This document shows positions 1,678-48,717 of a stretch of 64,000 bases of DNA, in pieces. The DNA lies in NCBI GenBank assembly GCA_048617235.1, contig JBMCHT010000001.1, forward strand, positions 54,043-118,042, in the 5' to 3' direction. Position 1 is the stretch's first letter. Every line of letters begins with the position of its first letter. Both the position numbers and the translations under genes were made by a program. Below the pieces are notes generated by a model. That model was not told the origin of the DNA and searched no databases. It saw nothing but the letters and a program-made list of their open reading frames with translations. The stretch is from Patescibacteria group bacterium. Its GTDB lineage: Bacteria; Patescibacteriota; Minisyncoccia; Phycocordibacterales; XYD1-FULL-46-19.

Positions 1678-3465
1678 ATGAGTCATAAAATAACGACCAG
1701 ACACTTAAAAACCAGTTTTAAGGTGATAGGTGATTTTTTTAGAAAATATCGCCGGCAAGTGACCATTTTACTGATTTTAAATTTAATAATTGCCGTTGGT
1801 AATGCCACCGTTCCTTTTATTACCGGTAGATTTTTTGATGCCCTTCTAAATCCGGAGGCTGTTTTCAATATTGGTCAATATTCCATACCCTTGGTTTTGG
1901 GTATTTTAAGTATTTTATTTTTAATTCAATTAATTTTGGCTTTAATTGATTATAATAATGGTTACCGCTCGGCTTTAATTACTTTTTTATCTCGACATGA
2001 TCATCAGTTAAAATCTTATGACAGATTATTAGAACTACCTTTAGCCTTTCATAAAAAACATAAAATTGGCAGCATTCAAGGTAAAATCACAGAAACCGGT
2101 TGGGGAATGCAAACTCTAGTTGGTCGCTTAATTAATCAAACCGGTTTTACTTTGATTTCCGGTTTAATCGCTTTGGTTGTTATTTTTTATATCCATCCTT
2201 TGATGGCCTTATTTACCTTAACCGGTTTACTTATTTTTTTAATTTTCTCTACTCTAAATTTAAAACATACTGCTTTTGCTGAGCATAAATTTTATCAAGC
2301 TTTTGATATTGCTTATGGAGATGTTTATGACTCTTTAGCCAACATTTCCGCTATTAAACAAGCAGTATCCGAGGAGTATGAAAGAAATAAATTAAGGAAA
2401 AATTTTATTAAAAGATTGCAACCTTTGTGGATGACTTCGGAAAATATCTGGCGTAATTTACGATTTCAACAAAGAATAGTCATTATTTCGGTACAATTAG
2501 TGGTTTTTATCTGGTCAATAAAATTAGTAACTGACGGTATTATGTCTATAGGTGATTTAATTGCCTTTAATGCTTACTTAACTATGGTTTTTGGTCCTTT
2601 TGTGGAAATACTGGATATGTCTAAAACCGTTCAAAACGCTTTGATTAATATTGGTAATTTAGAAAAATTACTCAGTTATCCGGCGGAGAAATATCAACCA
2701 ACCAATAAAAAAGAATTGAAAAATATAAATGGAAAAATAAAATTTGATAATGTCTCTTTTAGCTACAAGCGTCGGGAACCGGTATTGGAAGATATTAGTT
2801 TTGAAATTGACCCGGGGCAAGTAGTAGCTTTAGTGGGAGAGTCCGGAGTGGGTAAAAGCACTTTAATTAACCTACTTTCGGCTTACTATTTCCCAACCAA
2901 AGGTAAAGTTTTAATAGATGAAATTAATATTCGTAAATTAGATTTGGGGTTTTTGCGATCTCAAATTGCCATTGTCCCTCAAGAAGTGGTTTTGTTTAAT
3001 GATACTATCAAAAGTAATATTAAATATGGTAATTTTAAAGCTAAAGACAATCAGGTGAAAAAAGCAGCCGAGCAAGCTCATGCCTTGGATTTTATTGAAA
3101 AATTCCCTAAAAAATGGAATCAGTTGGTGGGCGAAAGGGGAGTTAAATTATCTGTCGGTCAAAAACAAAGAATAGCCATTACTCGAGCTATTTTAAAAGA
3201 TCCCCGAATTTTAATTTTAGATGAACCAACCTCGGCTTTAGACGCTCGATCGGAAAAAATTATTCAGAAGTCTTTAAATGAATTAATGAAAAACCGAACT
3301 ACTTTTATTATCGCTCATCGTTTAAGTACTGTCAGAAAAGCCGATTTAATTTTAGTTTTAGAAAAAGGTAAAATAGTGGAAAAAGGAAACCACGATCAAT
3401 TAATTCAAAAACAAGATGGGACTTATCGAAAGTTATACGAATTACAAATAGGTTTACACGAATAA
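1678..3465 (+). CDS. ABC exporter, fused permease/ATPase (MsbA/multidrug-like)
   Basis: 6-helix N-terminal TMD. Walker A 'GESGVGKST', ABC signature 'LSVGQKQR', Walker B 'ILILDEPTSALD'. Confidence 0.85.
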   Translation: MSHKITTRHLKTSFKVIGDFFRKYRRQVTILLILNLIIAVGNATVPFITGRFFDALLNPEAVFNIGQYSIPLVLGILSILFLIQLILALIDYNNGYRSALITFLSRHDHQLKSYDRLLELPLAFHKKHKIGSIQGKITETGWGMQTLVGRLINQTGFTLISGLIALVVIFYIHPLMALFTLTGLLIFLIFSTLNLKHTAFAEHKFYQAFDIAYGDVYDSLANISAIKQAVSEEYERNKLRKNFIKRLQPLWMTSENIWRNLRFQQRIVIISVQLVVFIWSIKLVTDGIMSIGDLIAFNAYLTMVFGPFVEILDMSKTVQNALINIGNLEKLLSYPAEKYQPTNKKELKNINGKIKFDNVSFSYKRREPVLEDISFEIDPGQVVALVGESGVGKSTLINLLSAYYFPTKGKVLIDEINIRKLDLGFLRSQIAIVPQEVVLFNDTIKSNIKYGNFKAKDNQVKKAAEQAHALDFIEKFPKKWNQLVGERGVKLSVGQKQRIAITRAILKDPRILILDEPTSALDARSEKIIQKSLNELMKNRTTFIIAHRLSTVRKADLILVLEKGKIVEKGNHDQLIQKQDGTYRKLYELQIGLHE

Positions 3466-3467
3466 CC

Positions 3468-4214
3468 ATGACAGATAATTTTAAAATTAAAGTTAAAGAT
3501 TTTGAAGGTCCTTTGGATTTATTGTTGCAATTAATTGAAAAAAGAAAAATGCACATTAGTGAAATTTCTTTAGCTGAAGTGGCTGAAGATTTTATCTCTT
3601 ATCTGGAAAGAAAAGAAGAATTACCTAAAGAAGAAGTGGTTGATTTTATCTTTATAGCCGCTTGTTTAATGTTAATAAAATCCGCTTCTTTATTACCTAA
3701 TTTAGAAACCATTCCGGCCGAAGAAGAAGATATTCGGGATTTAGAGATTAGATTAAAGTTGTATCAAATTATTAAATCTGTAGCCGGTAATTTAAGAAAA
3801 AGAATTGAAAAATATCCTATATTTTTAAATAAACCTCGAAAAAAAGAACCCGTATTTGCTCCCGGAGTTGATTTAACTATTTACAATCTACATCAAGCAG
3901 CTATCAAAACGCTGAATGATTTACCAGTAGCAGAAAAGAAAAAACCAACAATAGCTGTAGGAAAAACTATTAATCTGGAAGAAGTGGTGGATAATTTAAC
4001 TAATCGCTTACAACAATCTTTAAAATTATCTTTTAAAGAATTTGTCAATTCCGGAAAAACAGAAGACAAGAAACAATACAAGGTTATGGTAGTAGTTTCT
4101 TTTCTGAGCTTATTGGAGTTATTAAAAAGGGGAGTGGCTTCAGCTCAACAAAATGATCTTTTTAGCGATATAGAATTATCTAATCAAGCCACCAATACTC
4201 CTCGTTATATATAA
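3468..4214 (+). CDS. scpA: Segregation and condensation protein A
   Basis: N-terminus 'FEGPLDLLLQLIEKRKMHISEISLAEV' typical of ScpA. Adjacent to scpB. Confidence 0.85.
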   Translation: MTDNFKIKVKDFEGPLDLLLQLIEKRKMHISEISLAEVAEDFISYLERKEELPKEEVVDFIFIAACLMLIKSASLLPNLETIPAEEEDIRDLEIRLKLYQIIKSVAGNLRKRIEKYPIFLNKPRKKEPVFAPGVDLTIYNLHQAAIKTLNDLPVAEKKKPTIAVGKTINLEEVVDNLTNRLQQSLKLSFKEFVNSGKTEDKKQYKVMVVVSFLSLLELLKRGVASAQQNDLFSDIELSNQATNTPRYI

Positions 4215-4332
4215 AAAGAACCCCGGCAATATCTAACTACGACACTGCCGGGGAGTAGGTGGTTTCCGGAGAGCGCCGGATAAGAAAAAGGCGCTCAACC
4301 CGGAAACCGAGGGAAGGAAGGTCATTTAATCT
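4215..4332 (-). ncRNA. Candidate ~118-nt small RNA (unclassified), transcribed convergently into the scpA 3' end
   Basis: Minus-strand consensus promoter TTGACA(4362-4367)-N17-TATAAT(4339-4344). GC-rich nested hairpins (GGTTTCCGG...CCGGAAACC). Intrinsic terminator CCCCGGCA-N17-TGCCGGGG plus U-run ending ~4215. 5' region carries CCUUCCUUCCCUC. Confidence 0.45.
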
Positions 4333-4361
4333 GTCGTTATTATATATTTTATCAAATAATA

Positions 4362-4367
4362 TGTCAA
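4362..4367 (-). promoter_or_regulatory. -35 box (TTGACA) of the candidate sRNA promoter; -10 TATAAT at 4339-4344
   Basis: Exact sigma70 consensus hexamers with 17-nt spacer, read on the minus strand. Confidence 0.5.
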
Positions 4368-4410
4368 TACCCATTTGCTAAAAAGATGAAAAAAAGTTAA
4401 TCTTATAGGT

Positions 4411-4983
4411 ATGAATTTAGGTCAAAAAATAGAAGCTTTGTTATTTTATAAGGCGGAACCACTTAAAAAAAATAAAATAATTGAATGGCTTCAAACAGAT
4501 TTTCAATCTCTAACAGAGGCTGTTTCAGAGCTAAAAGTACTTTTAAACAATCGGGGGTTGATTTTAATAGAAACAGATGACAGTTTGGCTTTGGGTACCA
4601 GGCCGGAATTAGCGGAACTATTAGCTGAAATAGATAAAAAAGAATTAGAGTCCAATTTGGGGCCTGCCGGTTTAGAAGTTTTGGCTATAGTTTTATACCA
4701 AGGACCGATTACCAGAGCCGGAATAGATTATATTCGAGGAGTTAATTCTAGCTCGACCTTGCGTCAACTAACTATGAGAGGCTTATTGGAGAAAAATAAA
4801 AATATTAATGGAGATAATAAAACTTTGGTTTATAAACCAACTATTGATTTATTAACTAAACTGGGAATTAGTAATTTGAATGATTTGCCGGATTACCAAA
4901 CCATTAAAACTAAGATGAATTCTTTTAAACAAGATGAAGGTGAAGATGAAACAAAAAACCAAACTTATGAAAAAGAAAATTAA
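4411..4983 (+). CDS. scpB: Segregation and condensation protein B
   Basis: 'LEVLAIVLYQGPITRAGIDYIRGV' winged-helix ScpB signature. Follows scpA. Confidence 0.85.
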   Translation: MNLGQKIEALLFYKAEPLKKNKIIEWLQTDFQSLTEAVSELKVLLNNRGLILIETDDSLALGTRPELAELLAEIDKKELESNLGPAGLEVLAIVLYQGPITRAGIDYIRGVNSSSTLRQLTMRGLLEKNKNINGDNKTLVYKPTIDLLTKLGISNLNDLPDYQTIKTKMNSFKQDEGEDETKNQTYEKEN

Positions 4984-5899
4984 TTTTAATATTGTTAATA
5001 AAATTATATTAGTGATTGCCACTTTAGGACTGTTTTCACTTATTATTATCGGCTTACCTTGGCAAGAAGCCAATAATTCCTTACAACTGGCGGCAATTGA
5101 AGCCGGATCTCCAAACCAAGAACAACCGGTTGATTATTGGACAGAATTAGAATTATCAGCTGAAGCTGCCGCTGTTTATAATATAACTACCGAAGAATTC
5201 ATTTTTGAAAAAAAATTAAATAAACATCTGCCAATCGCTTCAGTAACCAAATTAATGACCATAATTACGGCAGTTGATTATTTAAATTATGAAGACAAAA
5301 TAACTATCGAATCATCTGAGGCCGGAATAATAAGCAGCGCCGGTTTACAAACAGGAGATACTTGGAGATTTGAAGATTTGGCTCGTTTTACTTTAATTAC
5401 TTCCAGTAATGGGGGAGCGACAGCTATTGCTCGAGCAGCCGGTCAAAAAGCCGGAGATGAAAATTTTATCAGTTTGATGAATAAAAAAGCTAAAGATCTT
5501 GGTTTAAATAATACTTTTTTTGTTAATTCAACAGGTTTGGATGTAGGTGGTCAACACAGCGGTTCTTATAGTACCGCTCGAGAAATAACTTTATTAATGG
5601 TTAAACTGTGGCAACAAGAATCAGATTTACTAACTTCAACCGGTTTAACTTCAACTTCTTTTACAACTACAAGCGGCCGTCGCTACCCAGCCACCAACAC
5701 TAATAAGAAAATGGATATTATGCCCGGTTTAGTGGCTTCCAAAACCGGATATACCGGTAACGCCGGAGGTAATTTAACTACAGTGGTAGATATTGGTCCG
5801 GGAAATTATTATGTCATTACAGTTTTAGGATCTACTCGAGAACAAAGAACCGAGGATATCAGTAAAATGATCTTTACTCTTATTAAATCTTTAAAATAA
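4934..5899 (+). CDS. dacA: D-alanyl-D-alanine carboxypeptidase (serine peptidase S11, PBP5-like). Start may be ATG 4946.
   Basis: SxxK 'SVTKLM', SxN 'SSNGGA', KTG 'KTGYTG' motifs. N-terminal TM/signal. Confidence 0.8.
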   Translation: MKVKMKQKTKLMKKKINFNIVNKIILVIATLGLFSLIIIGLPWQEANNSLQLAAIEAGSPNQEQPVDYWTELELSAEAAAVYNITTEEFIFEKKLNKHLPIASVTKLMTIITAVDYLNYEDKITIESSEAGIISSAGLQTGDTWRFEDLARFTLITSSNGGATAIARAAGQKAGDENFISLMNKKAKDLGLNNTFFVNSTGLDVGGQHSGSYSTAREITLLMVKLWQQESDLLTSTGLTSTSFTTTSGRRYPATNTNKKMDIMPGLVASKTGYTGNAGGNLTTVVDIGPGNYYVITVLGSTREQRTEDISKMIFTLIKSLK

Positions 5900-5906
5900 T
5901 ATAATT

Positions 5907-6974
5907 ATGACCGGTATATATCTAGATATTTTCAAAGTCTTTGTACCAACTTTAACCGCTTTTGTGGTGGGAATTTCTTTAACCCCTGTTTTAACTCATT
6001 ATTTATATAAACATAAATTATGGAAGAAAAAAGCCGGTAAAATCTCTCCCGACGGACAAGCCACTCCGGTTTTTGATCGTTTACATAAAGATAAAGAAGT
6101 GGGCACGCCACGCATGGGGGGGGTGGTTATTTGGAGCAGTGTTTTAATTACAATCACTTTTTTTTGGCTTATATCTATTCTAATACCTGAATCCGATTTT
6201 TGGATTAAACTTAATTTTTTAAGCCGAAATCAGACATGGTTACCTTTATTTACTTTAATAGTAGCTTCTCTTTTAGGTTTGGCTGATGATTGGCTACAAG
6301 TATCTAGCACCAACAAAACCAATGAAGGTTTACCTTTTAATTATCGTTTATTGGTAGTCGGTTTTCTTGGATTAGTTGGAGGTTGGTGGTTTTTTGCCAA
6401 ATTAGGAATGACAGAAATCAGTTTACCTTTTTTTGAAAATAACCTTTATTTAGGCTGGTTAATAATACCGTTATTTATAATAATAATGTTAGCTTTGTTT
6501 TCCAGTGGAGTAATAGATGGATTAGACGGATTATCCGGTGGAATAATGTCTATAATCTTTTTCACTTATGCCGCTTTGGCTTTTTTTCAAACTCAAGTTA
6601 ATTTGGCTACCTTCTGTGCCGTGGTTGGTGGAGCTATTTTAGCCTTCTTATGGTTTAATATTCCGCCGGCTAGGTTTTATATGTCTGAAACGGGCATCTT
6701 GGGTTTAACCACCGCCTTAACAGTTGTAGTCTTCTTAACTGATTCTGTTTTATTATTACCAATCATTGCTTTACCATTGGTTGTCACTTCCGGTTCAGTG
6801 GTTATCCAAATGTTATCTAAAAAAATGCGACACGGTAAAAAAATCTTTAAGATAGCTCCTCTTCATCATCATTTTGAAGCTATTGGTTGGCCAGCCTATA
6901 AAGTGGTAATGCGTTATTGGCTGATAGGGATAATAGCCGCCATTATTGGTTTAATTTTAGCCTTAATCAGTTAG
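5907..6974 (+). CDS. mraY: Phospho-N-acetylmuramoyl-pentapeptide transferase
   Basis: Polytopic membrane protein. 'LADDWLQ' Asp pair, 'APLHHHFE' His motif. dcw context. Confidence 0.9.
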   Translation: MTGIYLDIFKVFVPTLTAFVVGISLTPVLTHYLYKHKLWKKKAGKISPDGQATPVFDRLHKDKEVGTPRMGGVVIWSSVLITITFFWLISILIPESDFWIKLNFLSRNQTWLPLFTLIVASLLGLADDWLQVSSTNKTNEGLPFNYRLLVVGFLGLVGGWWFFAKLGMTEISLPFFENNLYLGWLIIPLFIIIMLALFSSGVIDGLDGLSGGIMSIIFFTYAALAFFQTQVNLATFCAVVGGAILAFLWFNIPPARFYMSETGILGLTTALTVVVFLTDSVLLLPIIALPLVVTSGSVVIQMLSKKMRHGKKIFKIAPLHHHFEAIGWPAYKVVMRYWLIGIIAAIIGLILALIS

Positions 6975-37864: not shown

Positions 37865-38980
37865 TTATCTAAATAGTAGAATAAATAACTCGTCAACTGT
37901 CAAATAAACCATTAAAGCTATTAATAAAACAAAACCAACCAAATTAAACCAAGAGATTACCGCCTGATTAAATTCTTTTTTTCTGATTGCTTCCAAAGCT
38001 AAAATAAATAATCTCCCTCCATCTAAAGCCGGAAAGGGAATAAAATTAATTATAGCTAAATTTATAGAAATCAAAACTATTAAACTGGCTACATAAATAA
38101 ATCCCATACTGGAAGTCTCTCCCACTAAACCAGCCAACCCAACCGGTCCGATTAATTGGTCAAATGGTGATTGACCGACAAAAATTCCGCTTAAAATTTC
38201 AAATAAGGATTGTAAAATTAAAATAGTTAAACTAAAAATCATTTTCAAACCAACTACCGGCGCTTGCCACCAAACAGTTTTAACCAAACCAATTTGATTT
38301 AATTCCACTCCCAAGGCTCTTTTGCCATTTGGTCGAAAACCCGTCGTTGGTTCCAATACTATCGACTGCTTCTCTCCTGTAGTTGATAATACTTCCAAAC
38401 CGATTTCTTTCGCTTCCATTTGCTCTATCAATAAAGACAACTCTTCCGCTTGTTGAATGTCTTCTTTTTTATTATTCAAAATAACTGCTTCTATTTCTTG
38501 GCCGGCCATTAACCCTGCTTTATCTGCTGGGGAATCTGAAACAACTTGTTGAATAACCACCGGACCTGTTTCTAAAATTTCAAAGTTTTCAGATAAACCG
38601 GCCAGACTCATAGGCCATCCAATAATCAAACCAATAGATAAAACAATCCAAGCAAAAAGTAAATTAAAAACTACTCCGGCCGCCAATACTGCCGCTTGAA
38701 TTCTTTTAGATTTATCCGGTAAACGACGACCTTTTGTTTCATCAGTCAGACCAGAACCCTCTATTTCATCTTCACCGGCCATTTTTACAAATCCTCCAAA
38801 AGGAATCATGTTTATAGAATAGATTGTTTCTCCTATTTTTTTAGAATATAACTTGGGCGGAAAACCCAAACCAAATTCTTCCACTTTAATTCCAAAAAAT
38901 TTAGCCACACTAAAATGACCCAATTCATGAACAAATATCAATAAGGTTAAAATAATTAAAAAAAATAAAATGGAAATCAT
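37865..38980 (-). CDS. rseP: Site-2 protease RseP (M50 zinc metalloprotease with PDZ)
   Basis: 'HELGHF' HExxH in the first TM region, central PDZ. 'LDGG' near the C-terminus. Confidence 0.85.
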   Translation of the reverse strand: MISILFFLIILTLLIFVHELGHFSVAKFFGIKVEEFGLGFPPKLYSKKIGETIYSINMIPFGGFVKMAGEDEIEGSGLTDETKGRRLPDKSKRIQAAVLAAGVVFNLLFAWIVLSIGLIIGWPMSLAGLSENFEILETGPVVIQQVVSDSPADKAGLMAGQEIEAVILNNKKEDIQQAEELSLLIEQMEAKEIGLEVLSTTGEKQSIVLEPTTGFRPNGKRALGVELNQIGLVKTVWWQAPVVGLKMIFSLTILILQSLFEILSGIFVGQSPFDQLIGPVGLAGLVGETSSMGFIYVASLIVLISINLAIINFIPFPALDGGRLFILALEAIRKKEFNQAVISWFNLVGFVLLIALMVYLTVDELFILLFR

Positions 38981-38993
38981 CAGCTTGGTTTAA

Positions 38994-39584
38994 TCAAAGA
39001 CTTATTTCTTTTCTTTTTCTTTCAGTTAAAACTTCCAAATTGGATTCCAATTCAGACATAACTTTTTGCAAATCTTCCTTTAATTTAAATTTTTCATCTT
39101 CAGTCAATTCACCAGTTTTAGCTTGGTCTTGAATTTCATTCCAAAGTTTTTCCCTTTCTTTTCTTAAAGAAATTTTAACTTCTTCCAACTTATCGCCAAT
39201 CATCTTAATTAACATATCTCTACGTTCAGTAGTTAAATCCGGGAAAATAACCCATAAACAACCGGGAGACGGAGAAGTAGATACTCCCAAGTTAGCGGAA
39301 GCAATGGCTTTTTCCACCTCCTTAACTTGAGACGGATCCCAGGGAGAAACATTTAAAGTTTTAGGATCTTCAATCGAAATTGAAGCTAAATGGCGCAAAG
39401 GAGAACGAGTTCCTAAAACTTCTACCTCCACACTATCTAATAAGGCAGGAGTAGCACGACCGGTACGAACCGATTTTAAAGAATCAGCTAACCAGTCCTC
39501 CAGTTCTTGACCCTTTTCTTTTAATTTTTTAATATAATCACCTATCATTATTATCATCATAAAAAATAATAAATCTTTTAGCAA
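38994..39584 (-). CDS. frr: Ribosome recycling factor
   Basis: 'LKSVRTGRATPALLDSVEVEVLGTRSPLRHLASISIEDPKTL' collinear with the RRF consensus. Confidence 0.85.
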   Translation of the reverse strand: MLKDLLFFMMIIMIGDYIKKLKEKGQELEDWLADSLKSVRTGRATPALLDSVEVEVLGTRSPLRHLASISIEDPKTLNVSPWDPSQVKEVEKAIASANLGVSTSPSPGCLWVIFPDLTTERRDMLIKMIGDKLEEVKISLRKEREKLWNEIQDQAKTGELTEDEKFKLKEDLQKVMSELESNLEVLTERKRKEISL

Positions 39585-39599
39585 GTTTTAAATATTAAT

Positions 39600-40298
39600 T
39601 TAAACCTCAAACAACAATAACCAAATTGGTTCTAAAAGTAAACGACGATTAATCCAAACCCCGTTTCTTGATTGTCGGCCGGCAATCACTAACAATTCTT
39701 CAATTTTTTTACCGATCGTTAAGTTAATTTTTTTATGTTTAAGTAAGTCTTTAAAATATTGCTCAGCTGTTTGTAAAAAATCATTCTCCCAACCCGGCGA
39801 TCCATTTTTAAGTAATTGCTTGAATATTTTTTCTCGACCAACTCCGTCTTGGTTCCAAAAATCAATCCAAAAGTCATCATTTTTTAATAAACCTTGATTA
39901 TCTGATACAAAATTAAGTACTCGGCAACGAGACTTTACTGTTTCCAACCAGCGATCTGATTTATCCGCCAATAAAATAAAACAATTATTAGCCGGAGATT
40001 CTTCTAAAATTTTTAATAAGGAATTTTGGACAAATAAATTAAGATAACGGCCATCCAAAACTATCAATCTAAGACATCCTAATGGCTGACGATAAACTCC
40101 GGCTATTAAAAGTTTAAAATCTTCAACTGATATCGCTTCATCCACCTGATAATAATCAGTAGGATGTAAATTACCATCAGTTATTAAAGAATTTTTAATA
40201 TCTCCTATTTGTTCATAAATATCTGTAAGCGAACCAACAACTAAAACAGATTGAACTTGTAATTGTAAAGAATCTGAAAATAAAAATTCTTTGAGCAT
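39600..40298 (-). CDS. holB: DNA polymerase III delta'-like clamp-loader subunit (degenerate, no Walker A)
   Basis: 'SLLKILEESPANNCFILLADKSDRWLETVKSRC' matches the delta'/tau sensor-1/SRC region. N-terminus lacks a P-loop. Confidence 0.45.
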   Translation of the reverse strand: MLKEFLFSDSLQLQVQSVLVVGSLTDIYEQIGDIKNSLITDGNLHPTDYYQVDEAISVEDFKLLIAGVYRQPLGCLRLIVLDGRYLNLFVQNSLLKILEESPANNCFILLADKSDRWLETVKSRCRVLNFVSDNQGLLKNDDFWIDFWNQDGVGREKIFKQLLKNGSPGWENDFLQTAEQYFKDLLKHKKINLTIGKKIEELLVIAGRQSRNGVWINRRLLLEPIWLLLFEV

Positions 40299-40299
40299 A

Positions 40300-41316
40300 C
40301 TACCCTCTTTTGGTTATTATACTTTTTTTATAAGTATCCAAATGTTCCAAAGCCACCCCTGTACCATTGGCAACACAAAATAAAGGTTCATCAGCTAAAT
40401 TGGCTTTAACTCCGGTTCGCCTATAAACCAAATCGGTTATATGCCTCAATTGCGAAGAACCACCGGTCATAATAATCCCTTGATCTATTATATCGGAAGC
40501 CAACTCCGGCGGAGTTTCCTGAAAGACACTTTTTATAGCTTTTATAATTTCTCTCAACTCTCCTTCTATAGCTCTAACTATTTCATTAGTTTTAATATCA
40601 GCCCCTCTAGGTAAACCAGTCATAAAATCTCGCCCTTTTATATGGTAAACTGTTTCCTCTTCTACCGGCACAGCTGAACCTATAGCCATTTTAAGATCTT
40701 CTATAGTTTTATCTCCTACCGATAAATTTAAAGTTTTTTTAATATAATCAGCAATAGCTTGATCAATTTTGTTGCCGGCGTGTTTAACTGAAGTCGAAGA
40801 AACAATACCCCCTAAAGAGATAACTGCTACATCTATCGTCCCTCCACCAATATCCACCACCATATGTCCTTTAGGTTCATAAATGGGAATTCCGGCTCCA
40901 ATGGCTGCTAAAATCGGTTCTTTAACTACATAAGCATTTCGAGCCCCGGCTTTCATAGCTGCTTCTATCACCGCTCGCCTTTCAGTTGAAGTTACTCCGG
41001 CCGGTACCGAAATTAAAACATCCGGTCTAATTAAATTAAACCGACCTAAAACTTTACTTATATAATATTTCAACATAGCTTCGGTTACCAAGTAATCGGC
41101 AATCACCCCGTCTTTCATTGGTCTAAAAGCGGTAATATTATCGGGAGTTTTACCTACCATATCTTTGGCCTCCAAACCAACAGCTACCACTTTATTATCT
41201 ATTCCGGAAACAGCTACCACTGACGGTTCATTTAAAACTATCCCCTTACCGGGTGCAAAAACCAAGGTATTAGCCGTACCTAAATCTATTCCCAATTTTT
41301 TAGTTAAAAAAGCCAT
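40300..41316 (-). CDS. mreB: Second actin-like MreB/Mbl paralog
   Basis: 'GIDLGTANTLVF', 'VDIGGGTIDVAVISLGG', 'IIMTGGSS' actin-fold motifs. Not next to mreCD. Confidence 0.85.
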   Translation of the reverse strand: MAFLTKKLGIDLGTANTLVFAPGKGIVLNEPSVVAVSGIDNKVVAVGLEAKDMVGKTPDNITAFRPMKDGVIADYLVTEAMLKYYISKVLGRFNLIRPDVLISVPAGVTSTERRAVIEAAMKAGARNAYVVKEPILAAIGAGIPIYEPKGHMVVDIGGGTIDVAVISLGGIVSSTSVKHAGNKIDQAIADYIKKTLNLSVGDKTIEDLKMAIGSAVPVEEETVYHIKGRDFMTGLPRGADIKTNEIVRAIEGELREIIKAIKSVFQETPPELASDIIDQGIIMTGGSSQLRHITDLVYRRTGVKANLADEPLFCVANGTGVALEHLDTYKKSIITKRG

Positions 41317-41483: not shown

Positions 41484-43739
41484 TTAAATTTTTATAGCTT
41501 TTTGTTTTAAAACGCCTTTAGTTAAATTCATTTCGGCTGAAGTATGTATTTTTTTATAAGAACCATCCGCTTGTTTAGCTTCTATTGTCATATAATAACG
41601 TCCGGGTTGTAATAAAACATAAAAGCGTCCAAAGGCATCAGTTACCATCTTTTTTACTTCTTGATCTAAATCGACCATATAAAAACGAATAATAGCAAAT
41701 GACAAAGGTTGTCCATTATAGGAAACCACGGTTGCCAGATGAATCTTTTTCCAAATTTGTTGAAATATAAAAATTAAAATGTAAGCCACTAGTAAAGAAA
41801 GATTGAGCCATGAAAAACCGGTAGTAACCGACCAGACTGTTGCCAATAAACCGGCCCAATAAATAAAACCGGTAAATCGTCTTAACCACAACTCTCTGCG
41901 TGTATATACTTGAAAATATTTAGCCTGACTCTTGGTATATTCATTCCAATCAAAACCAACCGGATCCAATGGAATATTTTTATTAATCACATTTTGACCA
42001 CCAGCCTCCAATTCTTCGCCGAAATAAAGATTATCATATAATTCATCTTCTTGACGACCGGCCAAAATATTTGAAGGAAAACGATAATGAGTTTTACCGG
42101 CTTCCAAATAATATTGACCGGGTGGTAATAAAAAACCATAACGACCATCAATATCCGTAATAGCTGAAGTTTGTTTCTCTTTATTTATTGTAGAATAAAC
42201 ATTTATATAAGCGGGATCTATCGGGCGCTTGGTTACGGCATCATAGACCACTCCCCAAGGACGACTTTTTCTACGATAACCTAACCAACCAATTAAAGCT
42301 GCCAACCATCTTAAAAGTAAAAGATAGATATCAGTAAACGACCATAAACTCAAAGACGCTCCGGCCACTTGAAGAACACCGGCTGTTAAACCAACTCCGC
42401 TTAAAGCCGGGGCTGCCATTTTCTCTACAGTTTGTGAAACTGTAGCCGTTGCCGGCCAGGCCGTTATAGTAATTTCTCCTTCTAAACGACCTAATATTTT
42501 TTGATCTTCAGTTAAAAAAGAAACCGCTGCCGGCACCTGGCCGGTTTGCCTAAAAGCCGGTAAAATTCCGGAATAAACTCCTTCAGATTCTTTTAATAAT
42601 ATAGCTATTGTTTGGCCACTATTCGGATCTGAGGTAGAAAAAACCAAAGTCTCTACAAAAGAATCGACTTTATCGGCAGAAATTCTAACCTCAGTATACC
42701 AATCCGGTTTTAAATTATAATGACCGGTAGCTTTAATTAATCTACGACCATCTTCTTGAATCAAAGCAAAATCAGACCACACCGGTAAAGAAAAATCTAA
42801 ATCAATTTCTCCCGTTTGTTCAAAATATTCAAACGGATCAAAAAAATCTTCAACAATATCATCGTCTACCGGATAAAAAGGATCATCGGAATCATCAGGA
42901 TCATCGGAATCATCAGGATCATCGGGATCATCAGGATCATCGGGATCATCAGGATCATCGGGATCATCGGGATCATCGGGATCATCGGGATCATCGTCTT
43001 CATATTCACAAGAACCGTCGTCGGTTATTGCCAAAGGGTCATAATTAATAGCTTCAGGATCAGTACAACCTGTGTCGGGATCATCGTCTTCATATTCACA
43101 AGAACCGTCGTCGGTATTGGCCTCCGGATTATAATTAATCGCTTCCGGATCGGTACAGCCAAGTATTGAATCATAAACTCCCGGCACCGCCACAAAAGCT
43201 ACTACTCCGGAAGAAATAACTTCATCTGTCGCCACCGCGAAAGCGGTATAATAATATAATTCACCATTTTCCACCTCAGTATCTATAGCTACCTCTCCCG
43301 AACCTTCATAAATTAATTGCCCTTGATCTATATCTGTTGGAATATAATCAACCAGACGACGAATAATTATATAATCTAATCTATCCCCTGTTGGATTTTG
43401 CCAATCTAAATTAACTCGCATTTGTTCTTGATTATAAGAAGCTACAAAACCATCAGGATTAGGCATCGACCCCAATTCATATTCACAAGATCCATCATCA
43501 GCAGTAGCTTCAGAATCATAGTTAACCGCTTCCGGATCAGTACAACCCCAAACTGTCCCTCCACCACCGCCGCCACCACCGCCACCACCAGTATCTTCTT
43601 CATTTATAGTAACCGAAACATCTAAGGCCAAAGCCGGATAACTTATTATTAAAAAGACAGGCAAAACAGCTAAAATCGCAAAAAATAAACGATGATTGAA
43701 TTTTCTTTTTAAAGCTGAAAAAAACATTTTATAAAGCAA
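41484..43739 (-). CDS. Giant repeat-rich cell-surface protein with carboxypeptidase-regulatory-like domains and internal TM helices
   Basis: N-terminal signal anchor. G11 run. Three 'GCTDPEAxNY...DDGSCEYE' Cys modules. (DPD)n tract. Internal TM helices. 'DIDGRYGFLLPPGQYYLEAGKTHYRF' and 'GRFYVLLQPGRYYMTIEA' CarbopepD_reg-like beta-sandwich motifs. Confidence 0.6.
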   Translation of the reverse strand: MLYKMFFSALKRKFNHRLFFAILAVLPVFLIISYPALALDVSVTINEEDTGGGGGGGGGGGTVWGCTDPEAVNYDSEATADDGSCEYELGSMPNPDGFVASYNQEQMRVNLDWQNPTGDRLDYIIIRRLVDYIPTDIDQGQLIYEGSGEVAIDTEVENGELYYYTAFAVATDEVISSGVVAFVAVPGVYDSILGCTDPEAINYNPEANTDDGSCEYEDDDPDTGCTDPEAINYDPLAITDDGSCEYEDDDPDDPDDPDDPDDPDDPDDPDDPDDPDDSDDPDDSDDPFYPVDDDIVEDFFDPFEYFEQTGEIDLDFSLPVWSDFALIQEDGRRLIKATGHYNLKPDWYTEVRISADKVDSFVETLVFSTSDPNSGQTIAILLKESEGVYSGILPAFRQTGQVPAAVSFLTEDQKILGRLEGEITITAWPATATVSQTVEKMAAPALSGVGLTAGVLQVAGASLSLWSFTDIYLLLLRWLAALIGWLGYRRKSRPWGVVYDAVTKRPIDPAYINVYSTINKEKQTSAITDIDGRYGFLLPPGQYYLEAGKTHYRFPSNILAGRQEDELYDNLYFGEELEAGGQNVINKNIPLDPVGFDWNEYTKSQAKYFQVYTRRELWLRRFTGFIYWAGLLATVWSVTTGFSWLNLSLLVAYILIFIFQQIWKKIHLATVVSYNGQPLSFAIIRFYMVDLDQEVKKMVTDAFGRFYVLLQPGRYYMTIEAKQADGSYKKIHTSAEMNLTKGVLKQKAIKI
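42878..42996. repeat. Tandem 9-bp repeat (GATCATCRG)x~13 within the surface-protein gene, encoding (D-P-D)n on the minus strand
   Basis: Directly visible: ggatcatcggaatcatcaggatcatcgg... repeated in phase. Confidence 0.85.
42987..43170. repeat. ~92-bp tandem duplication (two near-identical units; third diverged copy ~43465-43560) encoding the Cys-module repeats
   Basis: 'gatcatcgtcttcatattcacaagaaccgtcgtcggt...' occurs at 42987 and 43079 with few mismatches. Confidence 0.75.
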
Positions 43740-44478
43740 CTAAGGTCACGGTTAAGTTAGCTGTATAACTCCCATCCGGCAAACCGGAATCAGAAGCGGT
43801 TTCTGCTTTAAATCCTAAAACGATTTCACTACCATCAGGATGATTATCGGAATCAGCTTCCGCCACTGTTTGAACAACACCTAAGCCATCCCAACAATAA
43901 TCAAGAGAAGTAGAACCGGAAACACCACAATTATCACCATCATCTTGCCAGTTCAAAGTCGCATCATCTCCGGAAACCGTAAAGCCAAAAAGTCCGCCAC
44001 TGGTTGGAGAATCCCAAGAGTAATCAGGCACCCCTGTATTAGGAGTATAATCATCAAAACTATTACTGCCGGAACTTAAAGCCGGGTTACTATCTGCCTC
44101 AACCGTTAATTGGTAACCACTAGGGTTATTAGTAACTACTGTCCAAATTCCTTGACCGGTAGCCGAACCTCCATCAAAATCAATATTGGGAGTTAAATTT
44201 ATTTCTTCAGAACCGGATAAAGCCAAAATACTTTCATCTGTTAACATAGCCTGAAAACCACCCTCTAAATCATAAGAACCACTACTTAAATCTCCCGTCC
44301 CCATCTCGCCGACGGTATCTGTTACCTTAAAAGAACCAGATTCAGATAATTGACCGCCAACATTAACACTATCTGATTGGATTCTGTAATTACCACTTTC
44401 AGCTACAAAAGCTCCAGCTCCACCGGCTAGTAAAAAAACAATAATTACCCATTTCAATTTTAAAATTTTAATGAACAT
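43729..44478 (-). CDS. Secreted Gly/Ser/Asp-rich protein (possible WxL-like C-terminus)
   Basis: Signal peptide 'WVIIVFLLAGGAGAFVA'. Low-complexity G/S/D-rich. C-terminal 'GSYTANLTVTLVAL'. Start overlaps the upstream gene's stop. Confidence 0.4.
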   Translation of the reverse strand: MFIKILKLKWVIIVFLLAGGAGAFVAESGNYRIQSDSVNVGGQLSESGSFKVTDTVGEMGTGDLSSGSYDLEGGFQAMLTDESILALSGSEEINLTPNIDFDGGSATGQGIWTVVTNNPSGYQLTVEADSNPALSSGSNSFDDYTPNTGVPDYSWDSPTSGGLFGFTVSGDDATLNWQDDGDNCGVSGSTSLDYCWDGLGVVQTVAEADSDNHPDGSEIVLGFKAETASDSGLPDGSYTANLTVTLVAL

Positions 44479-45375
44479 TTATTTTTGTCTAATATAAAAT
44501 ACAAATTTAATAAATAAAACTAATAACAAAAATCCTGATAACCAAATCACCCAACTTGGAATAACAACAAATCTTAAAAATTTTTTATCTATTACATTAT
44601 TATAACCACGATTAAGGCTAACTCCAACTTTATACCAACCTCCAGACAAAGCCGGGATATCAAAATCTCTAAACCGAGTAGTCTCCGGTAAAACAAACCA
44701 AGGATCTATAATTTGCCGATGCACAATTTTACCTCTCAAATTTTTAATCTCAATCACTCCATAAGGATTAAGGTAAGTATCTCCTTTATTTTCAAATTCC
44801 AAACTTAGTCTCTCTGCTTGGCCACCAACAACTAAACGATTACCAGAATATCTGATCCCTTTTAACTCACCCTCGGCCTGTCCTTCAAACTCCGCCGTAG
44901 ATACAAAAACCAAAACACCTATTCTGTTTTTAATACTGGTCATAGCCGACCCTGCCTTATTTTGGAGGTTAAAATCCGCTAAAATCGCTCCATGAAAACT
45001 TTCAGTCATTAAAAATTGTTGGTGATTAAAAGTAACAGATATTGTTTTCATTTCTCCGGGCAAAATCTCAAAATTTCTTTCAGATAAAATTAACCATTCA
45101 AAATTTTCTTCATCTTTAAATATAATTCCCTTTTTCGCTTGTGCTTCTACTGTAGTCGTGTTTAAATTCACAGTCACGGGATATTTAAAACCATTAAGAA
45201 AAGTTAAGGTTTTTGTTTTGGTAATTTGTCCGGCCTCAAACCTGATTTCCATTTTTCCGGGAGTAACAGTTAAAAAAGCTTCCGTTACCAAGGGTGAGAA
45301 AAATAAAATTATCACCAGTAAACCAAAAACTGTTTTTTTCCCAATCATTAAATTTTTTATATTAATTACTGACAT
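44479..45375 (-). CDS. Membrane-anchored beta-sandwich surface protein (DUF916/DUF3324-like architecture; chaperone/anchor candidate)
   Basis: N-terminal signal, beta-rich body. C-terminal TM 'WVIWLSGFLLLVLFIKFVFY' plus basic tail. First gene of the three-gene operon. Confidence 0.4.
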   Translation of the reverse strand: MSVINIKNLMIGKKTVFGLLVIILFFSPLVTEAFLTVTPGKMEIRFEAGQITKTKTLTFLNGFKYPVTVNLNTTTVEAQAKKGIIFKDEENFEWLILSERNFEILPGEMKTISVTFNHQQFLMTESFHGAILADFNLQNKAGSAMTSIKNRIGVLVFVSTAEFEGQAEGELKGIRYSGNRLVVGGQAERLSLEFENKGDTYLNPYGVIEIKNLRGKIVHRQIIDPWFVLPETTRFRDFDIPALSGGWYKVGVSLNRGYNNVIDKKFLRFVVIPSWVIWLSGFLLLVLFIKFVFYIRQK

Positions 45376-45416
45376 TATCTGTTAATCAAATATCTGTTAT
45401 TATCTAATTATACAAG

Positions 45417-47348
45417 ATGAAAACTAAAATTCCAACAAAAAAAGACTCTATTCAAATAATTGAAGTTTGGTTACTCGACGACCGCCGGCCTCTGGAAAAT
45501 TTAACTTATTTTTATCGCCGACCTTTAACTGCCGGTACAATTGTAGAAGTATCAATCGGCCGTCAAAAAAAACAAGCCGTAATCATTTCCTCTAATGATA
45601 TCTCCAAACAAAAAACTTCTCTTAAAAAAGCGAGTTTTCAATTAAAAAAAATTGAAAAAATAATTCAAGAAAATTTTTTACCACCAGAATTAATAAAAAC
45701 CGTAACAAAAATCGCACAATATTATGGTTGTGGCGGATCTGTTATTTTGAATCAGATTATCCCAACAAATATCTGGAAAAACTTAAAAACAATTACCGGT
45801 CCGACCACTAGAATTCCTCAACCTAATATTAAAACCAAACCAAACCTTAAACTAAAACCAATAGCTATTCAAGAAATAGATGAAGAAAGAATGACTGTTT
45901 ACAAAAATTTAACCAGAGAACAATTTGCTCAAAAAAAATCCACAATAATATTATTACCAACCACTCAATTAGTTGAAGAAACGGCCGGTAAAATACAAAA
46001 AGGTCTGGAAGATTATACTTTCATCATTCATGGTAATCTAAATTCAAAAACTCTCCATCAGAGATGGCAAAAGGCTGAAAACTGTCGTAAACCAGTTTTA
46101 TTAATAACCACCCCCTGGCATCTAGGCTTAAATCGTTCAGATTGGGGTATGATTATTGTTGAGCAAGAAAACAATGACAGTTATCAAACTCTCAGAAAAC
46201 CATTCGTAGATGGTCGCCTGTTGGCTCAAACCCTGGCAGAAATTATGTCTCTTAAAATAATTTATGGAGATATTTTGCTAACAACGGATAAAATTTATCA
46301 AATTGGTAAAAATTTAATAGATCCTCTTAGACCGATCAAGTATCGTTTTTTGACTGAAGCTAAAACCGAATTAGTAAAACTCAAAGAGAAAAACTTAAAA
46401 AATCCTGAAGAAAGATTTTCAATTTTAAGTCCTTCAGCTTTATCAATTTTAACCCAAGGAGCCGGTCGAGATCGTTCCTTGATTTTAGTTGGCCGTAAAG
46501 GTTGGAGTCCTTTGGTGGTTTGTGAAGATTGCGGACAATTACTTTTATGTTCTGATTGTCAAAAACCGGAGCTTTTTACTAGACCTTTCGGTTCCGACAA
46601 ACCGGGTGAGCTTGTTTGCCGACATTGCCAAAAAAAACATCCAGCTGATTCTTTTTGCCCTCATTGTCGCAGTTGGCGCTTAAAACCTTTAGGCATCGGT
46701 GCCGAACAAGTAAAAAACGAATATGATAAATATTTTCCCGGTAATCACTCCCTATTTATGACCGGCGACAATCACACCCCTCTTCAAGCCAAGAAAAAAA
46801 TAGAAACCTTTTTAGATTCGCCCGGCAGAGCTTTAATTGGTACAGAATTTATTCTTAATTATCTAAATGAACCAGTTGAAAATATTATAATCGCCACCTT
46901 AGACGCTGTCTTATCTGTACCAAATTATAAAATTAATGAAAAAATCTTTAAATTAATAATCAAAACCAGATCCCTAACTACAAAAAATATTATAATACAA
47001 ACCAGATTACCCCACTCTGAAATATTAAATCAAGCTTTAAATGGCAATGCTTTGGATTTTTATAGAGATGAATTAGCCGACAGACAAGCTCTCAACTATC
47101 CACCTTTTAGTAAACTCTTAAAAATAGTTTGCTCTGATACCGTAGATAAAAAACGTTTATTAAGCGTCAAAACTGAAAAAATACCTTGGCCTAATTATAC
47201 TTATACCGGTTTAAGTAAATCGGGTAAGCCCATTTTAACCTTATTAATTAAATTACCGCCGAATATTAAACCATTTGAGTGGCAAAAAATAATAGCTCCC
47301 CTACCTTTGGATTGTGAGATTTTAGTTGACCCCAACACCATTGTATAA
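45417..47348 (+). CDS. priA: Primosomal protein N' (PriA)-like, with intact Cys4 zinc-binding region but degenerate helicase motifs
   Basis: N-terminal 3'-DNA-binding-like region. 'CEDCGQLLLCSDC...CRHCQ...CPHCRS' zinc ribbons. No GxGKT Walker A; 'VEQEN' in place of DEEH. Confidence 0.65.
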   Translation: MKTKIPTKKDSIQIIEVWLLDDRRPLENLTYFYRRPLTAGTIVEVSIGRQKKQAVIISSNDISKQKTSLKKASFQLKKIEKIIQENFLPPELIKTVTKIAQYYGCGGSVILNQIIPTNIWKNLKTITGPTTRIPQPNIKTKPNLKLKPIAIQEIDEERMTVYKNLTREQFAQKKSTIILLPTTQLVEETAGKIQKGLEDYTFIIHGNLNSKTLHQRWQKAENCRKPVLLITTPWHLGLNRSDWGMIIVEQENNDSYQTLRKPFVDGRLLAQTLAEIMSLKIIYGDILLTTDKIYQIGKNLIDPLRPIKYRFLTEAKTELVKLKEKNLKNPEERFSILSPSALSILTQGAGRDRSLILVGRKGWSPLVVCEDCGQLLLCSDCQKPELFTRPFGSDKPGELVCRHCQKKHPADSFCPHCRSWRLKPLGIGAEQVKNEYDKYFPGNHSLFMTGDNHTPLQAKKKIETFLDSPGRALIGTEFILNYLNEPVENIIIATLDAVLSVPNYKINEKIFKLIIKTRSLTTKNIIIQTRLPHSEILNQALNGNALDFYRDELADRQALNYPPFSKLLKIVCSDTVDKKRLLSVKTEKIPWPNYTYTGLSKSGKPILTLLIKLPPNIKPFEWQKIIAPLPLDCEILVDPNTIV

Positions 47349-47360
47349 TATTTTAATAAT

Positions 47361-47867
47361 ATGACTGAAAAAAATAATATCGTTCAAAAAGATCATCCGG
47401 CGCTGAGACAAGTATCCGAAGAAATAGCTTTGGATAAAATCCACAGTCCGGAAATAAAAGATCTGATTAAAAAAATGGAAACCACTCTAAAATCAGAAAC
47501 CGACGGAGTAGCTCTGGCTGCTCCTCAAATTGGAGTTAATAAAAGATTATTTATAGTTTCCGGTAAAATTTTTACTCCTCCAGACTCTGATACTGAACCA
47601 CCAATTAAAATTTTTATTAACCCGGAAATTAAAAAAATGTCTAAGAAAAAAATTCGCCTGGAAGAAGGTTGTTTATCTGTCCGTCCTCTATACGGCCATA
47701 TTTTACGATCAGAAAAAATAAGTATTATTGCTTATGATCAGGAAGGAAAAAAGAAATCTTGGAACGCTTCCGGTTTATTGGCTCAAATTTTTCAACATGA
47801 GATAGATCATTTAAACGGTGTTTTATTTATTGATCAAGCCAGTGATTTTTATGAAATCACCGAATAA
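47361..47867 (+). CDS. def: Peptide deformylase
   Basis: 'GVALAAPQIGV', 'EGCLSV', 'HEIDHLNG' motifs 1-3. Confidence 0.9.
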   Translation: MTEKNNIVQKDHPALRQVSEEIALDKIHSPEIKDLIKKMETTLKSETDGVALAAPQIGVNKRLFIVSGKIFTPPDSDTEPPIKIFINPEIKKMSKKKIRLEEGCLSVRPLYGHILRSEKISIIAYDQEGKKKSWNASGLLAQIFQHEIDHLNGVLFIDQASDFYEITE

Positions 47868-48717
47868 TAAAACCCCTCATTTTATATTTGCCGGTACCGA
47901 TGATTTCGCCGTCACGGTCTTGGATACTCTTAGAAAAAGAAATTTAAAACCGGATTTAATAATAACAGCTCCCGACAAACCGGCCGGTCGTAAATTACAA
48001 TTAACTCCATCTCCGGTTAAAACATGGTCAACTGAATATAAATTACCACTATTACAACCTGCCTCTTTAAAAGACTGGCTCCCCTCCGGTTCCCAACCGG
48101 ATTTTTTACTTACTGCCTCTTATGGTTTATTTTTACCTAAAAAATTACTTCAATATCCCAAAAAAGGTTGTCTAAATATCCACCCTTCTTTATTACCTCT
48201 TTATCGAGGACCGGCGCCGGTAGTTGCAGCTATTCTATCTGATAATAAATACACCGGGGTTTCTATTATGTTGATGGATCAAAAAATGGATCATGGCCCG
48301 ATTTTAGCTCAAGCTCAAACTGAAATTAATCACAAATGGTTACTTCCTCTAAGTCAAGAATTAGCGGAAATCGGGGCTAATTTATTGGCAGATTTGTTAC
48401 CTCAATGGTTAACTGATGAAATTAAACCCACCCCTCAAAATCACGCTTTGGCTACTTTTAGTCAGAAAATTTCCAAACAAGACGGTTTAATAAATTTGGC
48501 TGATGATCCAATATTAAATTTTAAAAAAATTAGAGCTTATACTCCTTGGCCCGGTGCCTATTTTTTCACCAAAAAAGATAATTTAAAAATTACCATCAAA
48601 CAAGCTCATCTGAATGAAAATAATCTTTTAGTAATAGATAAAATAGTCCCGGCCGGCAAACAAGAAATGGCTTGGGCAGATTGGATCAGAAATAGACCGG
48701 AATTTACTCCCCTCTAA
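47851..48717 (+). CDS. fmt: Methionyl-tRNA formyltransferase (start at ATG 47851; ORF-track upstream extension unlikely)
   Basis: 'FIFAGTDDFAV', 'NIHPSLLPLYRGPAP' formyltransferase motifs. C-terminal Fmt domain. def-fmt pair. Confidence 0.9.
   Translation: MKSPNNKTPHFIFAGTDDFAVTVLDTLRKRNLKPDLIITAPDKPAGRKLQLTPSPVKTWSTEYKLPLLQPASLKDWLPSGSQPDFLLTASYGLFLPKKLLQYPKKGCLNIHPSLLPLYRGPAPVVAAILSDNKYTGVSIMLMDQKMDHGPILAQAQTEINHKWLLPLSQELAEIGANLLADLLPQWLTDEIKPTPQNHALATFSQKISKQDGLINLADDPILNFKKIRAYTPWPGAYFFTKKDNLKITIKQAHLNENNLLVIDKIVPAGKQEMAWADWIRNRPEFTPL

Follow-up and report, generated by a model that had tools for sequence, protein, structure and literature searches.

How do bacteria of the Candidate Phyla Radiation (CPR; Patescibacteria), most of which are uncultured episymbionts whose means of host attachment are largely unknown, build structures on their surface? 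The question is raised by three tightly packed minus-strand open reading frames (ORFs), here called g1, g2 and g3, in a 64,000-nucleotide stretch of DNA from a low-GC metagenome-assembled genome of a Patescibacteria group bacterium (contig JBMCHT010000001.1, assembly GCA_048617235.1). We refer to the whole stretch as the window. A preliminary description, made from the sequence alone, had taken these genes for a WxL-type surface-protein locus transplanted from Firmicutes. We find that the cassette is a variant related to the Pam pili of CPR bacteria and, through g1, to the WxL clusters of Firmicutes. The evidence supports a co-transcribed cell-surface locus, as had been described; a host-attachment role for it is plausible. 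With slightly better than even confidence, we read it as a minimal, Patescibacteria-native cassette for a chaperone-assisted surface fibre or stalk, related to the Saccharimonadia Pam pilus and to the Firmicutes WxLIP.

The ORFs lie at 44479-45375 (g1, 298 aa), 43729-44478 (g2, 249 aa) and 41484-43739 (g3), and the first two abut as described, the TAA stop of g1 immediately preceding the ATG of g2. Translated from its listed TTG, g3 overlaps g2 and has the reported 751 aa; an ATG at 43727, 1 nt past the g2 stop, gives 747 aa and is the more likely start because the N-termini of homologs ('MFK...') agree with it. At about 750 aa, the term 'giant protein' was an overstatement. Searches of Pfam, NCBIfam and PHROGs with the three window proteins singly gave almost no matches, so that family-level scans were needed; phmmer searches of each protein against PDB sequences were uninformative.

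The chaperone-like protein g1 and the pilin-domain protein g2

The features of g1 are as follows.

44479-45375, minus strand: g1, membrane-anchored protein with two Ig-like domains, homolog of WxLIP (DUF916/DUF3324), predicted fold that of a PapD-like chaperone
45277-45375, minus strand: signal peptide, aa 1-33 (hydrophobic aa 8-39; AlphaFold2 (AF2) helix 7-26; cleavage site inferred between ...LVTEA and F)
44896-45273, minus strand: beta-sandwich 1, aa 35-160, DUF916/PGBD-like (AF2; profile aligned to EfmWxLIP1 residues 25-185; PF06030 in 13/17 members)
44560-44871, minus strand: beta-sandwich 2, aa 169-272, DUF3324/HBD-like (AF2; WxLIP hhalign match reaches g1 column 269)
44485-44556, minus strand: C-terminal transmembrane (TM) helix, aa 274-297, with basic tail RQK (AF2 and hydrophobicity)

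In the AF2 model of g1 (pLDDT 85), a signal peptide is followed by two beta-sandwiches and, at the C-terminus, by a TM helix; this bears out the architecture proposed beforehand, a beta-rich body between signal peptide and TM helix with a basic tail. Window g1 alone has no Pfam or NCBIfam match. At the level of its family (window g1 and 16 relatives), 13 of 17 members matched PF06030 (WxLIP_PGBD, that is, DUF916), and the family profile, searched against the PDB, identified the solved Enterococcus faecium EfmWxLIP1 (9i1y/9i25; E 2.5e-9). Our reference set for WxLIP and WxL proteins came from 8 genuine WxL clusters on Lactobacillales plasmids; aligned by hhalign with the 8 plasmid WxLIPs, the g1 family scored 98.1% probability (E 8.4e-14) over 246 columns covering both domains. 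The proposed DUF916/DUF3324 likeness thus stands for the family and not for the window protein by itself, and sequence comparison indicates that g1 is, at family level, a homolog of the Firmicutes WxLIP. Foldseek searches with the g1 model returned as top matches the chaperones CsuC (6.6e-11), Caf1M, CfaA and FimC, and also 'WxLIP bound to long WxL' at 2.5e-10. Sequence homology of g1 to chaperone-usher (CU) chaperones was absent from Pfam and NCBIfam beyond a single family member with a marginal E of 0.052.

Described hallmarks of the WxLIP PGBD are a motif conserved at the N-terminus, NQIDKxxxYFDLK, and a buttressing loop of 20 residues. Neither the consensus nor the invariant columns of the g1 family contain the motif, and hhalign places a gap in g1 opposite the WxLIP segment that holds it. 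The family has invariant motifs of its own in beta-sandwich 2 (NxGxxxLNPYG, PWFVLP..R and LNRGY). Among plasmid sequences, a WxLIP left without annotation, with 62% identity to E. faecium WxLIP1, lies at 101986-102468 of CP069367.1, a plasmid labelled Klebsiella pneumoniae; this suggests an Enterococcus-derived plasmid or a mislabelled record.

The second gene encodes a protein with two parts.

43729-44478, minus strand: g2, predicted secreted PamT-like pilin-domain protein
44242-44400, minus strand: N-terminal triple strand-motif, aa 27-79: SGNYRIQSDSVNVGG / SGSFKVTDTVGEMGTG / SGSYDLEGGFQAM
43732-44241, minus strand: beta-rich domain at the C-terminus, aa 80-249 (Cys pair C184/C195 conserved)

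Each of the 13 g2-family members scanned matched NF058579, the NCBIfam model named 'CPR-type pilus protein PamT', the best of them at E 8.4e-14, and PamT is the sole database relative that we detected for g2. The triple strand-motif is both the most conserved portion of the family and the portion that aligned to the PamT model. We regard g2, on these matches, as a distant relative of PamT rather than a demonstrated member of its equivalog. The preliminary description had given g2 a WxL-like C-terminus, which did not survive comparison. Pfam's WxL domain matched none of the 13 g2-family members and did not match window g3, and when 143 g2 domains were compared by hhalign with a set of 10 genuine WxL domains from the 8 plasmid clusters, the probability was 0.8% and only the last 20 columns (the last strand) aligned; on the latter result we rejected a WxL identity for g2. 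The WxL motifs are replaced in g2 by GYxL and by a V at the W position, and the sole conserved W lies in CWDGL. A search of PDB sequences with the g2 profile also gave no match; however, an E. faecalis small WxL protein likewise found no relative there by sequence, and this null result may carry no weight if the WxL chain in 9i25 is too divergent.

An exhaustive search with a g2 hidden Markov model (HMM) identified 1,903 clusters (50% identity) at E <= 1e-3; with the limit at E <= 1e-30 there were 275. The best 149 representatives comprise 102 stand-alone proteins, 32 in which the module is C-terminal to other domains, and 15 g1-g2 fusions. Among the large carriers are one of 2,187 aa and another, of 1,205 aa, that has LamG and FN3 domains. 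The C-terminal domain of g2 is common to the C-termini of large surface proteins and to the g2' paralogs described below. All 15 fusions have the order g1-TM-loop-TM-g2 and keep an AxA cleavage site ahead of g2. Five other family members (P0170, P0194, P0257, P0264 and P0278) have a domain of ~200-350 aa inserted between the triple motif and the C-terminal domain, and may be two-domain pilin-like variants.

The putative anchor protein g3 and the cassette across Patescibacteria

The third protein is the most complex of the three, with the following features.

41484-43739, minus strand: g3, predicted membrane-anchored stalk protein (probable true start ATG 43727)
43593-43622, minus strand: LDVSVTINEE, aa 40-49, strand of alternating hydrophobics at the mature N-terminus (putative donor strand)
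43557-43589, minus strand: poly-Gly tether, G11, aa 51-61
43476-43547, minus strand: Cys module 1, aa 65-88
43170-43457, minus strand: FN3-like beta-sandwich, aa 95-190 (g3 HMM positions 95-190 matched in nearly all loci)
42999-43160, minus strand: Cys modules 2 and 3, aa 194-217 and 224-247 (aa 194-247; 90-nt tandem duplication)
42880-42996, minus strand: acidic spacer, DDP/DDS triplets in a run of 13 (DNA tandem repeat of 9 nt x 13, 88% matches)
42420-42872, minus strand: membrane-proximal 'middle' domain, aa 290-440, no fold assigned (g3 HMM ~230-370 matched across loci; in all g3-like proteins)
42279-42419, minus strand: hydrophobic region, aa 441-487 (weak segment, TM, then RRKSR)
41895-42263, minus strand: CarboxypepD_reg-like domain 1, aa 493-615
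41739-41876, minus strand: TM hairpin, aa 622-667
41487-41717, minus strand: putative CarboxypepD_reg-like domain 2, aa 675-751 (by the second stretch in homolog P0040; SdrD_B-type match at the equivalent site in locus L012)

Beyond its signal peptide, g3 contains the G11 run, the three Cys modules (24 aa each, GCTDPEA(V/I)NY..DDGSCEYE) and the acidic spacer of 13 triplets that had been noted before, the last made of DDP/DDS; the internal TM segments fall at the hydrophobic stretches ~aa 441-487 and 622-667. The FN3 label derives from the sequence pattern and from fn3 matches in homologs, as window g3 itself has no FN3 HMM match. Of the two CarboxypepD_reg domains claimed, window g3 yielded one match, below threshold (PF13715, E 3.3e-5, 24.3 bits against a gathering cut-off of 32.2, aa 496-546), and no HMM match for the second; most g3 homologs carry PF13620/PF13715, and P0040, at 52.5 bits, matches over two stretches. 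Within g3, conservation is highest in the module of TM segments and CarboxypepD_reg domains, which occurs in more than 1,500 CPR proteins with differing ectodomains. Counts of lysine plus arginine across the g3 family favour, under the positive-inside rule, a cytoplasmic location for its CarboxypepD_reg domains.

Two observations concern the repeats of g3. The GCTDPxAxNY...DDGSCxY module is common to many large Flavobacteriales proteins with type IX secretion system sorting tails (PF18962) and also weakly matches a phage virion structural PHROG; from its sequence distribution it looks like a widespread, unnamed mini-domain. The G11 tether is encoded by a CCA/CCACCACCG repeat (43557-43590), and the lengths of tether and acidic spacer could shift by slipped-strand mispairing.

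A scan of GTDB species representatives identified 80 loci, all from Patescibacteria bar one on a 2-kb contig. The exception (CAZXEV010000107.1), binned as 'uncultured Gammaproteobacteria', bears a typical CPR g1-g2 pair and is probably a mis-binned Patescibacteria fragment. Using local HMMs on the ~80 reference loci, we found g1 directly 5' of g2 wherever the flank exists, with a g3-like gene next. In the closest relatives of the window locus, the cassette occupies the same site, between priA and (murA)-mreB-holB-frr-rseP. The GC content of the locus is 0.32-0.40, compared with a window mean of 0.35, and the excess is limited to the repeat-rich half of g3. Given the conserved synteny in related Paceibacteria, the recurrence of the gene order and the GC content, we rejected transplantation from Firmicutes by horizontal transfer; a Pam-like and WxLIP-like donor-strand system native to CPR is, as our best reading, a better frame than a WxL locus.

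The g3-like proteins take three forms: a short one with a signal peptide, strand, FN3 domains, middle domain, single C-terminal TM and basic tail; the window type, with the TM/CarboxypepD_reg module; and one of ~1,000 aa, mostly from Lloydbacteria-labelled metagenome-assembled genomes. Most loci have an anchor with a single TM and without the CarboxypepD_reg module. Every g3-like protein has an alternating-hydrophobic strand after its signal peptide (SVDVNLSVT, GNQFTIGVTV and EDTFQITQTI are examples from elsewhere), followed by a variable flexible linker, either poly-G, as in the window, or poly-P, or else a small loop with Cys. A g2 paralog, g2', lies upstream in many loci, with a signal peptide, an N-terminal alternating-hydrophobic strand (for example QFTITQSVTSEISF) and a g2-type domain. 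Classic donor-strand pilins have this layout of strand plus domain. The g2' and g3 strands co-vary: the mean best 10-mer score was 20.9 within loci and 16.4 +/- 0.64 between loci (z 6.9; 0/20,000 permutations; 44 loci). Presence of g2' also follows the type of anchor, with 36 short-anchor loci having g2' and 4 lacking it, as against 1 and 19 of the loci with a CarboxypepD anchor. In P0040 (699 aa), a g2-type triple motif (SSPSYQLEKDSINFSGG...GGYQ) and poly-G stand in place of the single N-terminal strand, a module swap between g2 and g3.

A surface fibre or stalk among the possible readings

The closest described system is the Pam pilus of Ca. Mycosynbacter amalyticus (Troman et al., bioRxiv 10.64898/2026.03.03.709456), described in 2026 and only for Saccharimonadia and Microgenomatia. 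Its filament is assembled by donor-strand exchange, as seen by cryo-EM. The major pilins PamA, PamB and PamE have a nine-strand N-terminal domain, a linker donor strand and a truncated Ig C-terminal domain; PamC and PamD are PapD/FimC-like chaperones with two Ig-like domains and a C-terminal TM helix; PamR, the anchor, has a strand at its N-terminus, FnIII domains and a TM at its C-terminus; and PamT, of 25.6 kDa, is the proposed tip subunit, for which the authors predict a PamT:PamD chaperone complex. Both are CPR-specific, Sec-exported surface systems with paired cysteines in their subunits. Compared by description, g1 has the signal peptide, two Ig-like domains and C-terminal TM of PamC and PamD, and the short g3-like proteins have the strand, FN3 and C-terminal TM of PamR. 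Window g3 has a strand, an FN3-like domain and TM segments, but is a far larger anchor with the polytopic TM/CarboxypepD_reg module. Like g2, PamT is a single-domain protein of ~25 kDa, and its model, NF058579, detects g2. Pam pili use neither usher nor sortase; here, the locus has no usher-like gene, and a regex scan of all window ORFs found no genuine LPXTG sorting signal and a motif scan no prepilin motif, sortase and pilus-assembly genes not having been searched for directly. The systems differ in that no two-domain pilin of the PamA/PamB/PamE type lies in or beside the window locus, relatives having the one-domain g2'; in that the window has only three genes; in lineage, Paceibacteria-like here; and in genomic context, which is priA/mreB here and ATP synthase for Pam.

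Chaperone-usher pili are built with an outer-membrane usher and a soluble periplasmic chaperone of the PapD family (PF00345/PF02753). The cassette resembles those of the Pap, Fim, Csu and CFA/I type in the two-domain fold of g1, which best matches PapD-family chaperones, in N-terminal strands with alternating hydrophobics, and in a parallel set of subunits: an acceptor-only or adhesin-fused pilin domain, a subunit that is both donor and acceptor (in relatives, g2') and a terminator or anchor that only donates. It differs in its monoderm-type envelope, with no outer-membrane usher, in a membrane-tethered g1 and an integral membrane anchor, g3, and in lacking, bar the marginal match above, sequence homology to CU chaperones or pilins.

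We propose the following model. Sec would export all three proteins, and g1 would remain held in the membrane by its C-terminal helix while its two-domain PapD/WxLIP-like ectodomain, using beta-strand complementation, would bind g2 at its beta-rich domain and stabilise that domain. The membrane anchor would be g3, whose LDVSVTINEE strand, exposed on the G11 tether by cleavage of the signal peptide, would insert into the g2 domain by donor-strand exchange. A g2 cap or short homopolymer would then sit at the end of a long, acidic, disulfide-stabilised stalk made of the Cys modules, the FN3-like domain and the (DDP)13 spacer, and rooted by the polytopic TM/CarboxypepD_reg module.

The results in its favour are the homologies, the fold of g1, the recurring gene order, the fusions of g1 with g2, and N-terminal strands that are conserved and co-vary. 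Several points weigh against this model. We infer all physical interactions in it, along with the polarity of assembly, polymerisation of g2, the topology of the anchor and any adhesive or episymbiotic role. The AF2 model of the g2 monomer is of low confidence (pLDDT 43). Window g2 matches NF058579 at E 1.9e-8 and 34 bits, far below the equivalog cut-off of 240 bits, and only the model's N-terminal half is covered. None of g1, g3, g2' and the additional gene g0 of relatives (see below) matched a Pam family in NCBIfam, the coverage of PamC, PamD and PamR in that database being uncertain. WxLIP has been described as a stable scaffold or anchor and is not a proven catalytic chaperone. Cytoplasmic CarboxypepD_reg domains, as the charge distribution of g3 suggests, would be unusual for that fold. 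The co-variation of the g2' and g3 strands may amount to only a few clade-level switches. Finally, since the window lacks g2' and g0, its cassette may build no polymer at all.

WxL (Csc) clusters of Firmicutes, in which the WxLIP consists of DUF916 and DUF3324 (Hassan et al. 2023, PMC10599100; PDB 9i1y, 9i25), are defined by a minimum of one WxLIP plus two WxL-domain proteins (dual Trp-x-Leu) within a few genes, and include a small LPXTG-anchored protein of the CscD type. An alternative built on them, in line with the preliminary description, which we consider unlikely but worth serious attention, is non-covalent display: g1, as a WxLIP orthologue, would permanently hold g2, as a functional analogue of a small WxL protein, on peptidoglycan, with no fibre, and g3 would be an independent co-transcribed adhesin. 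Homology of g1 to WxLIP across both domains, in the same order of signal peptide, PGBD, HBD and TM, is consistent with this, as is the position of the g2 gene next to it. The g2 domain, found both stand-alone (~250 aa) and C-terminal on large multidomain proteins, mirrors small and large WxL proteins. A WxLIP-long-WxL complex has been solved (9i25), AF2 predicts insertion of a DUF916 hairpin into WxL, and the g1-g2 fusions would fit a permanent 1:1 complex. The comparisons of g2 with WxL domains argue the other way: there is neither detectable profile similarity nor a Pfam match, the motifs are replaced, and the PDB search was blank, though equally so for the E. faecalis protein. Without detectable WxL homology in g2, the locus falls outside the cluster definition; it also lacks an LPXTG protein among the window ORFs and NQIDKxxxYFDLK in the g1 consensus. 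In the databases, g2 has a pilus protein as its sole relative, and display would leave unexplained the conserved donor-like N-terminal strands of g3 and g2' and their co-variation. A conserved third gene with such a strand and a membrane anchor has no described counterpart in WxL clusters.

The conserved site beside (murA)-mreB-holB-frr-rseP in the closest relatives invites a different view, which we think improbable: a cell-envelope or shape module in which g3 links the surface layer through CarboxypepD_reg to a cytoplasmic partner such as the MreB machinery, with g1 and g2 as accessories. The conservation of the TM/CarboxypepD_reg module within g3, its occurrence across CPR proteins and the charge distribution that favours a cytoplasmic location for its CarboxypepD_reg domains all fit; but other loci lie in other genomic contexts, most have a single-TM anchor without CarboxypepD_reg, and we know of nothing that links these domains to MreB. 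Donor-strand fibres of monoderm-type envelopes are also known from TasA/TapA and the archaeal bundling pili (AbpA/AbpB), in which an accessory protein is the proposed anchor or initiator, and TasA homologs have been reported in Patescibacteria (PMC9245690). A biofilm-matrix fibre of that type, with g2 as a TasA-like donor-strand subunit and g3 as a TapA-like anchor or initiator, would give g3 much the role proposed for TapA or AbpB in donating the first strand. It is nevertheless very improbable: subunits of those systems are jelly rolls (Peptidase_M73) without HMM similarity to ours, Peptidase_M73/TasA (PF12389) had no match in g2-family members, g2' or g3-like proteins, on which ground we rejected that identity, and a PapD/WxLIP-like partner is missing from the TasA system, whereas here g2 is invariably tied to g1.

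Returning to the chaperone-assisted fibre or stalk, the cassette suggests that a related logic of chaperone, pilin domain and anchor is widespread in Paceibacteria, as the number of g2 clusters indicates, and the homology of g1 to WxLIP links CPR systems to the WxL clusters of Firmicutes. A broader reading, about which we are doubtful, makes WxL clusters, Pam pili and the present cassette branches of one ancient, usher-less, monoderm-type system with a membrane-tethered chaperone and donor-strand hand-off. WxLIP, g1 and PamC/PamD would then be true homologs and monoderm counterparts of PapD-family chaperones; the fibre would here be cut to a single anchor-plus-cap stalk, and the cytoplasm-facing TM/CarboxypepD_reg module could couple attachment to an intracellular partner. 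With three proteins and one predicted strand-groove interaction, the system is small enough to make usher-less donor-strand assembly directly testable, and the g2-type C-terminal module offers a handle for listing candidate host-binding adhesins in CPR genomes.

Genomic setting and minor features

The cassette is flanked by housekeeping genes: rseP-like, frr, holB-like and mreB downstream (37865-41316), and priA, def and fmt upstream in divergent orientation (45417-48717). The order of neighbours is as in relatives, except that murA lies between g3 and mreB in L003, L005 and L007; it is absent from L006 and the window. A sequence scan revealed no terminator-like site between g3 and mreB. One promoter-like site was seen 5' of g1.

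45407-45435, minus strand: promoter-like site TTGGAA-17-TATAAT (consensus match; inside the 41-bp divergent gap to priA)

Promoter-like sites in the region are no more numerous than expected from shuffled sequence.

Syntenic relatives in Paceibacteria have an additional first gene, g0, upstream of the cassette, encoding 338-392 aa (L003:6820-7998, L005:3213-4337, L006:3331-4425 and L007:3285-4301). The g0 protein combines an N-terminal TM and a helical region with a domain conserved at the C-terminus (...FSDxVxVxFDxxGxxGxIxPxFRDxxGExYxFVxTPxK), and had no family match; a pilin identity was considered for it and rejected. By tblastn there is no copy of g0 in the window, where it is absent between 45376 and 45416, and no second g2-like ORF is present in the window. 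Two plus-strand ORFs antisense to g3, at 42816-43169 (117 aa) and 43422-43625 (67 aa) (IIRIIGIIR..., TTAATTATT...), are by-products of its repeat DNA and not genes.

Elsewhere, as in L001 and L002, cassettes lie beside alaS, a tail-fibre-like protein and ribosomal genes. Directly upstream of the CarboxypepD-type g3/g1/g2 cassette of L001 is a gene (1782-6215) whose product, of 1,477 aa, has a Peptidase_S74 domain (tail-fibre chaperone) and weakly matches the N-terminal model of the Bdellovibrio MAT fibre. A 'tail fibre-like protein' has likewise been noted near pam operons (bioRxiv 10.64898/2026.03.03.709456).

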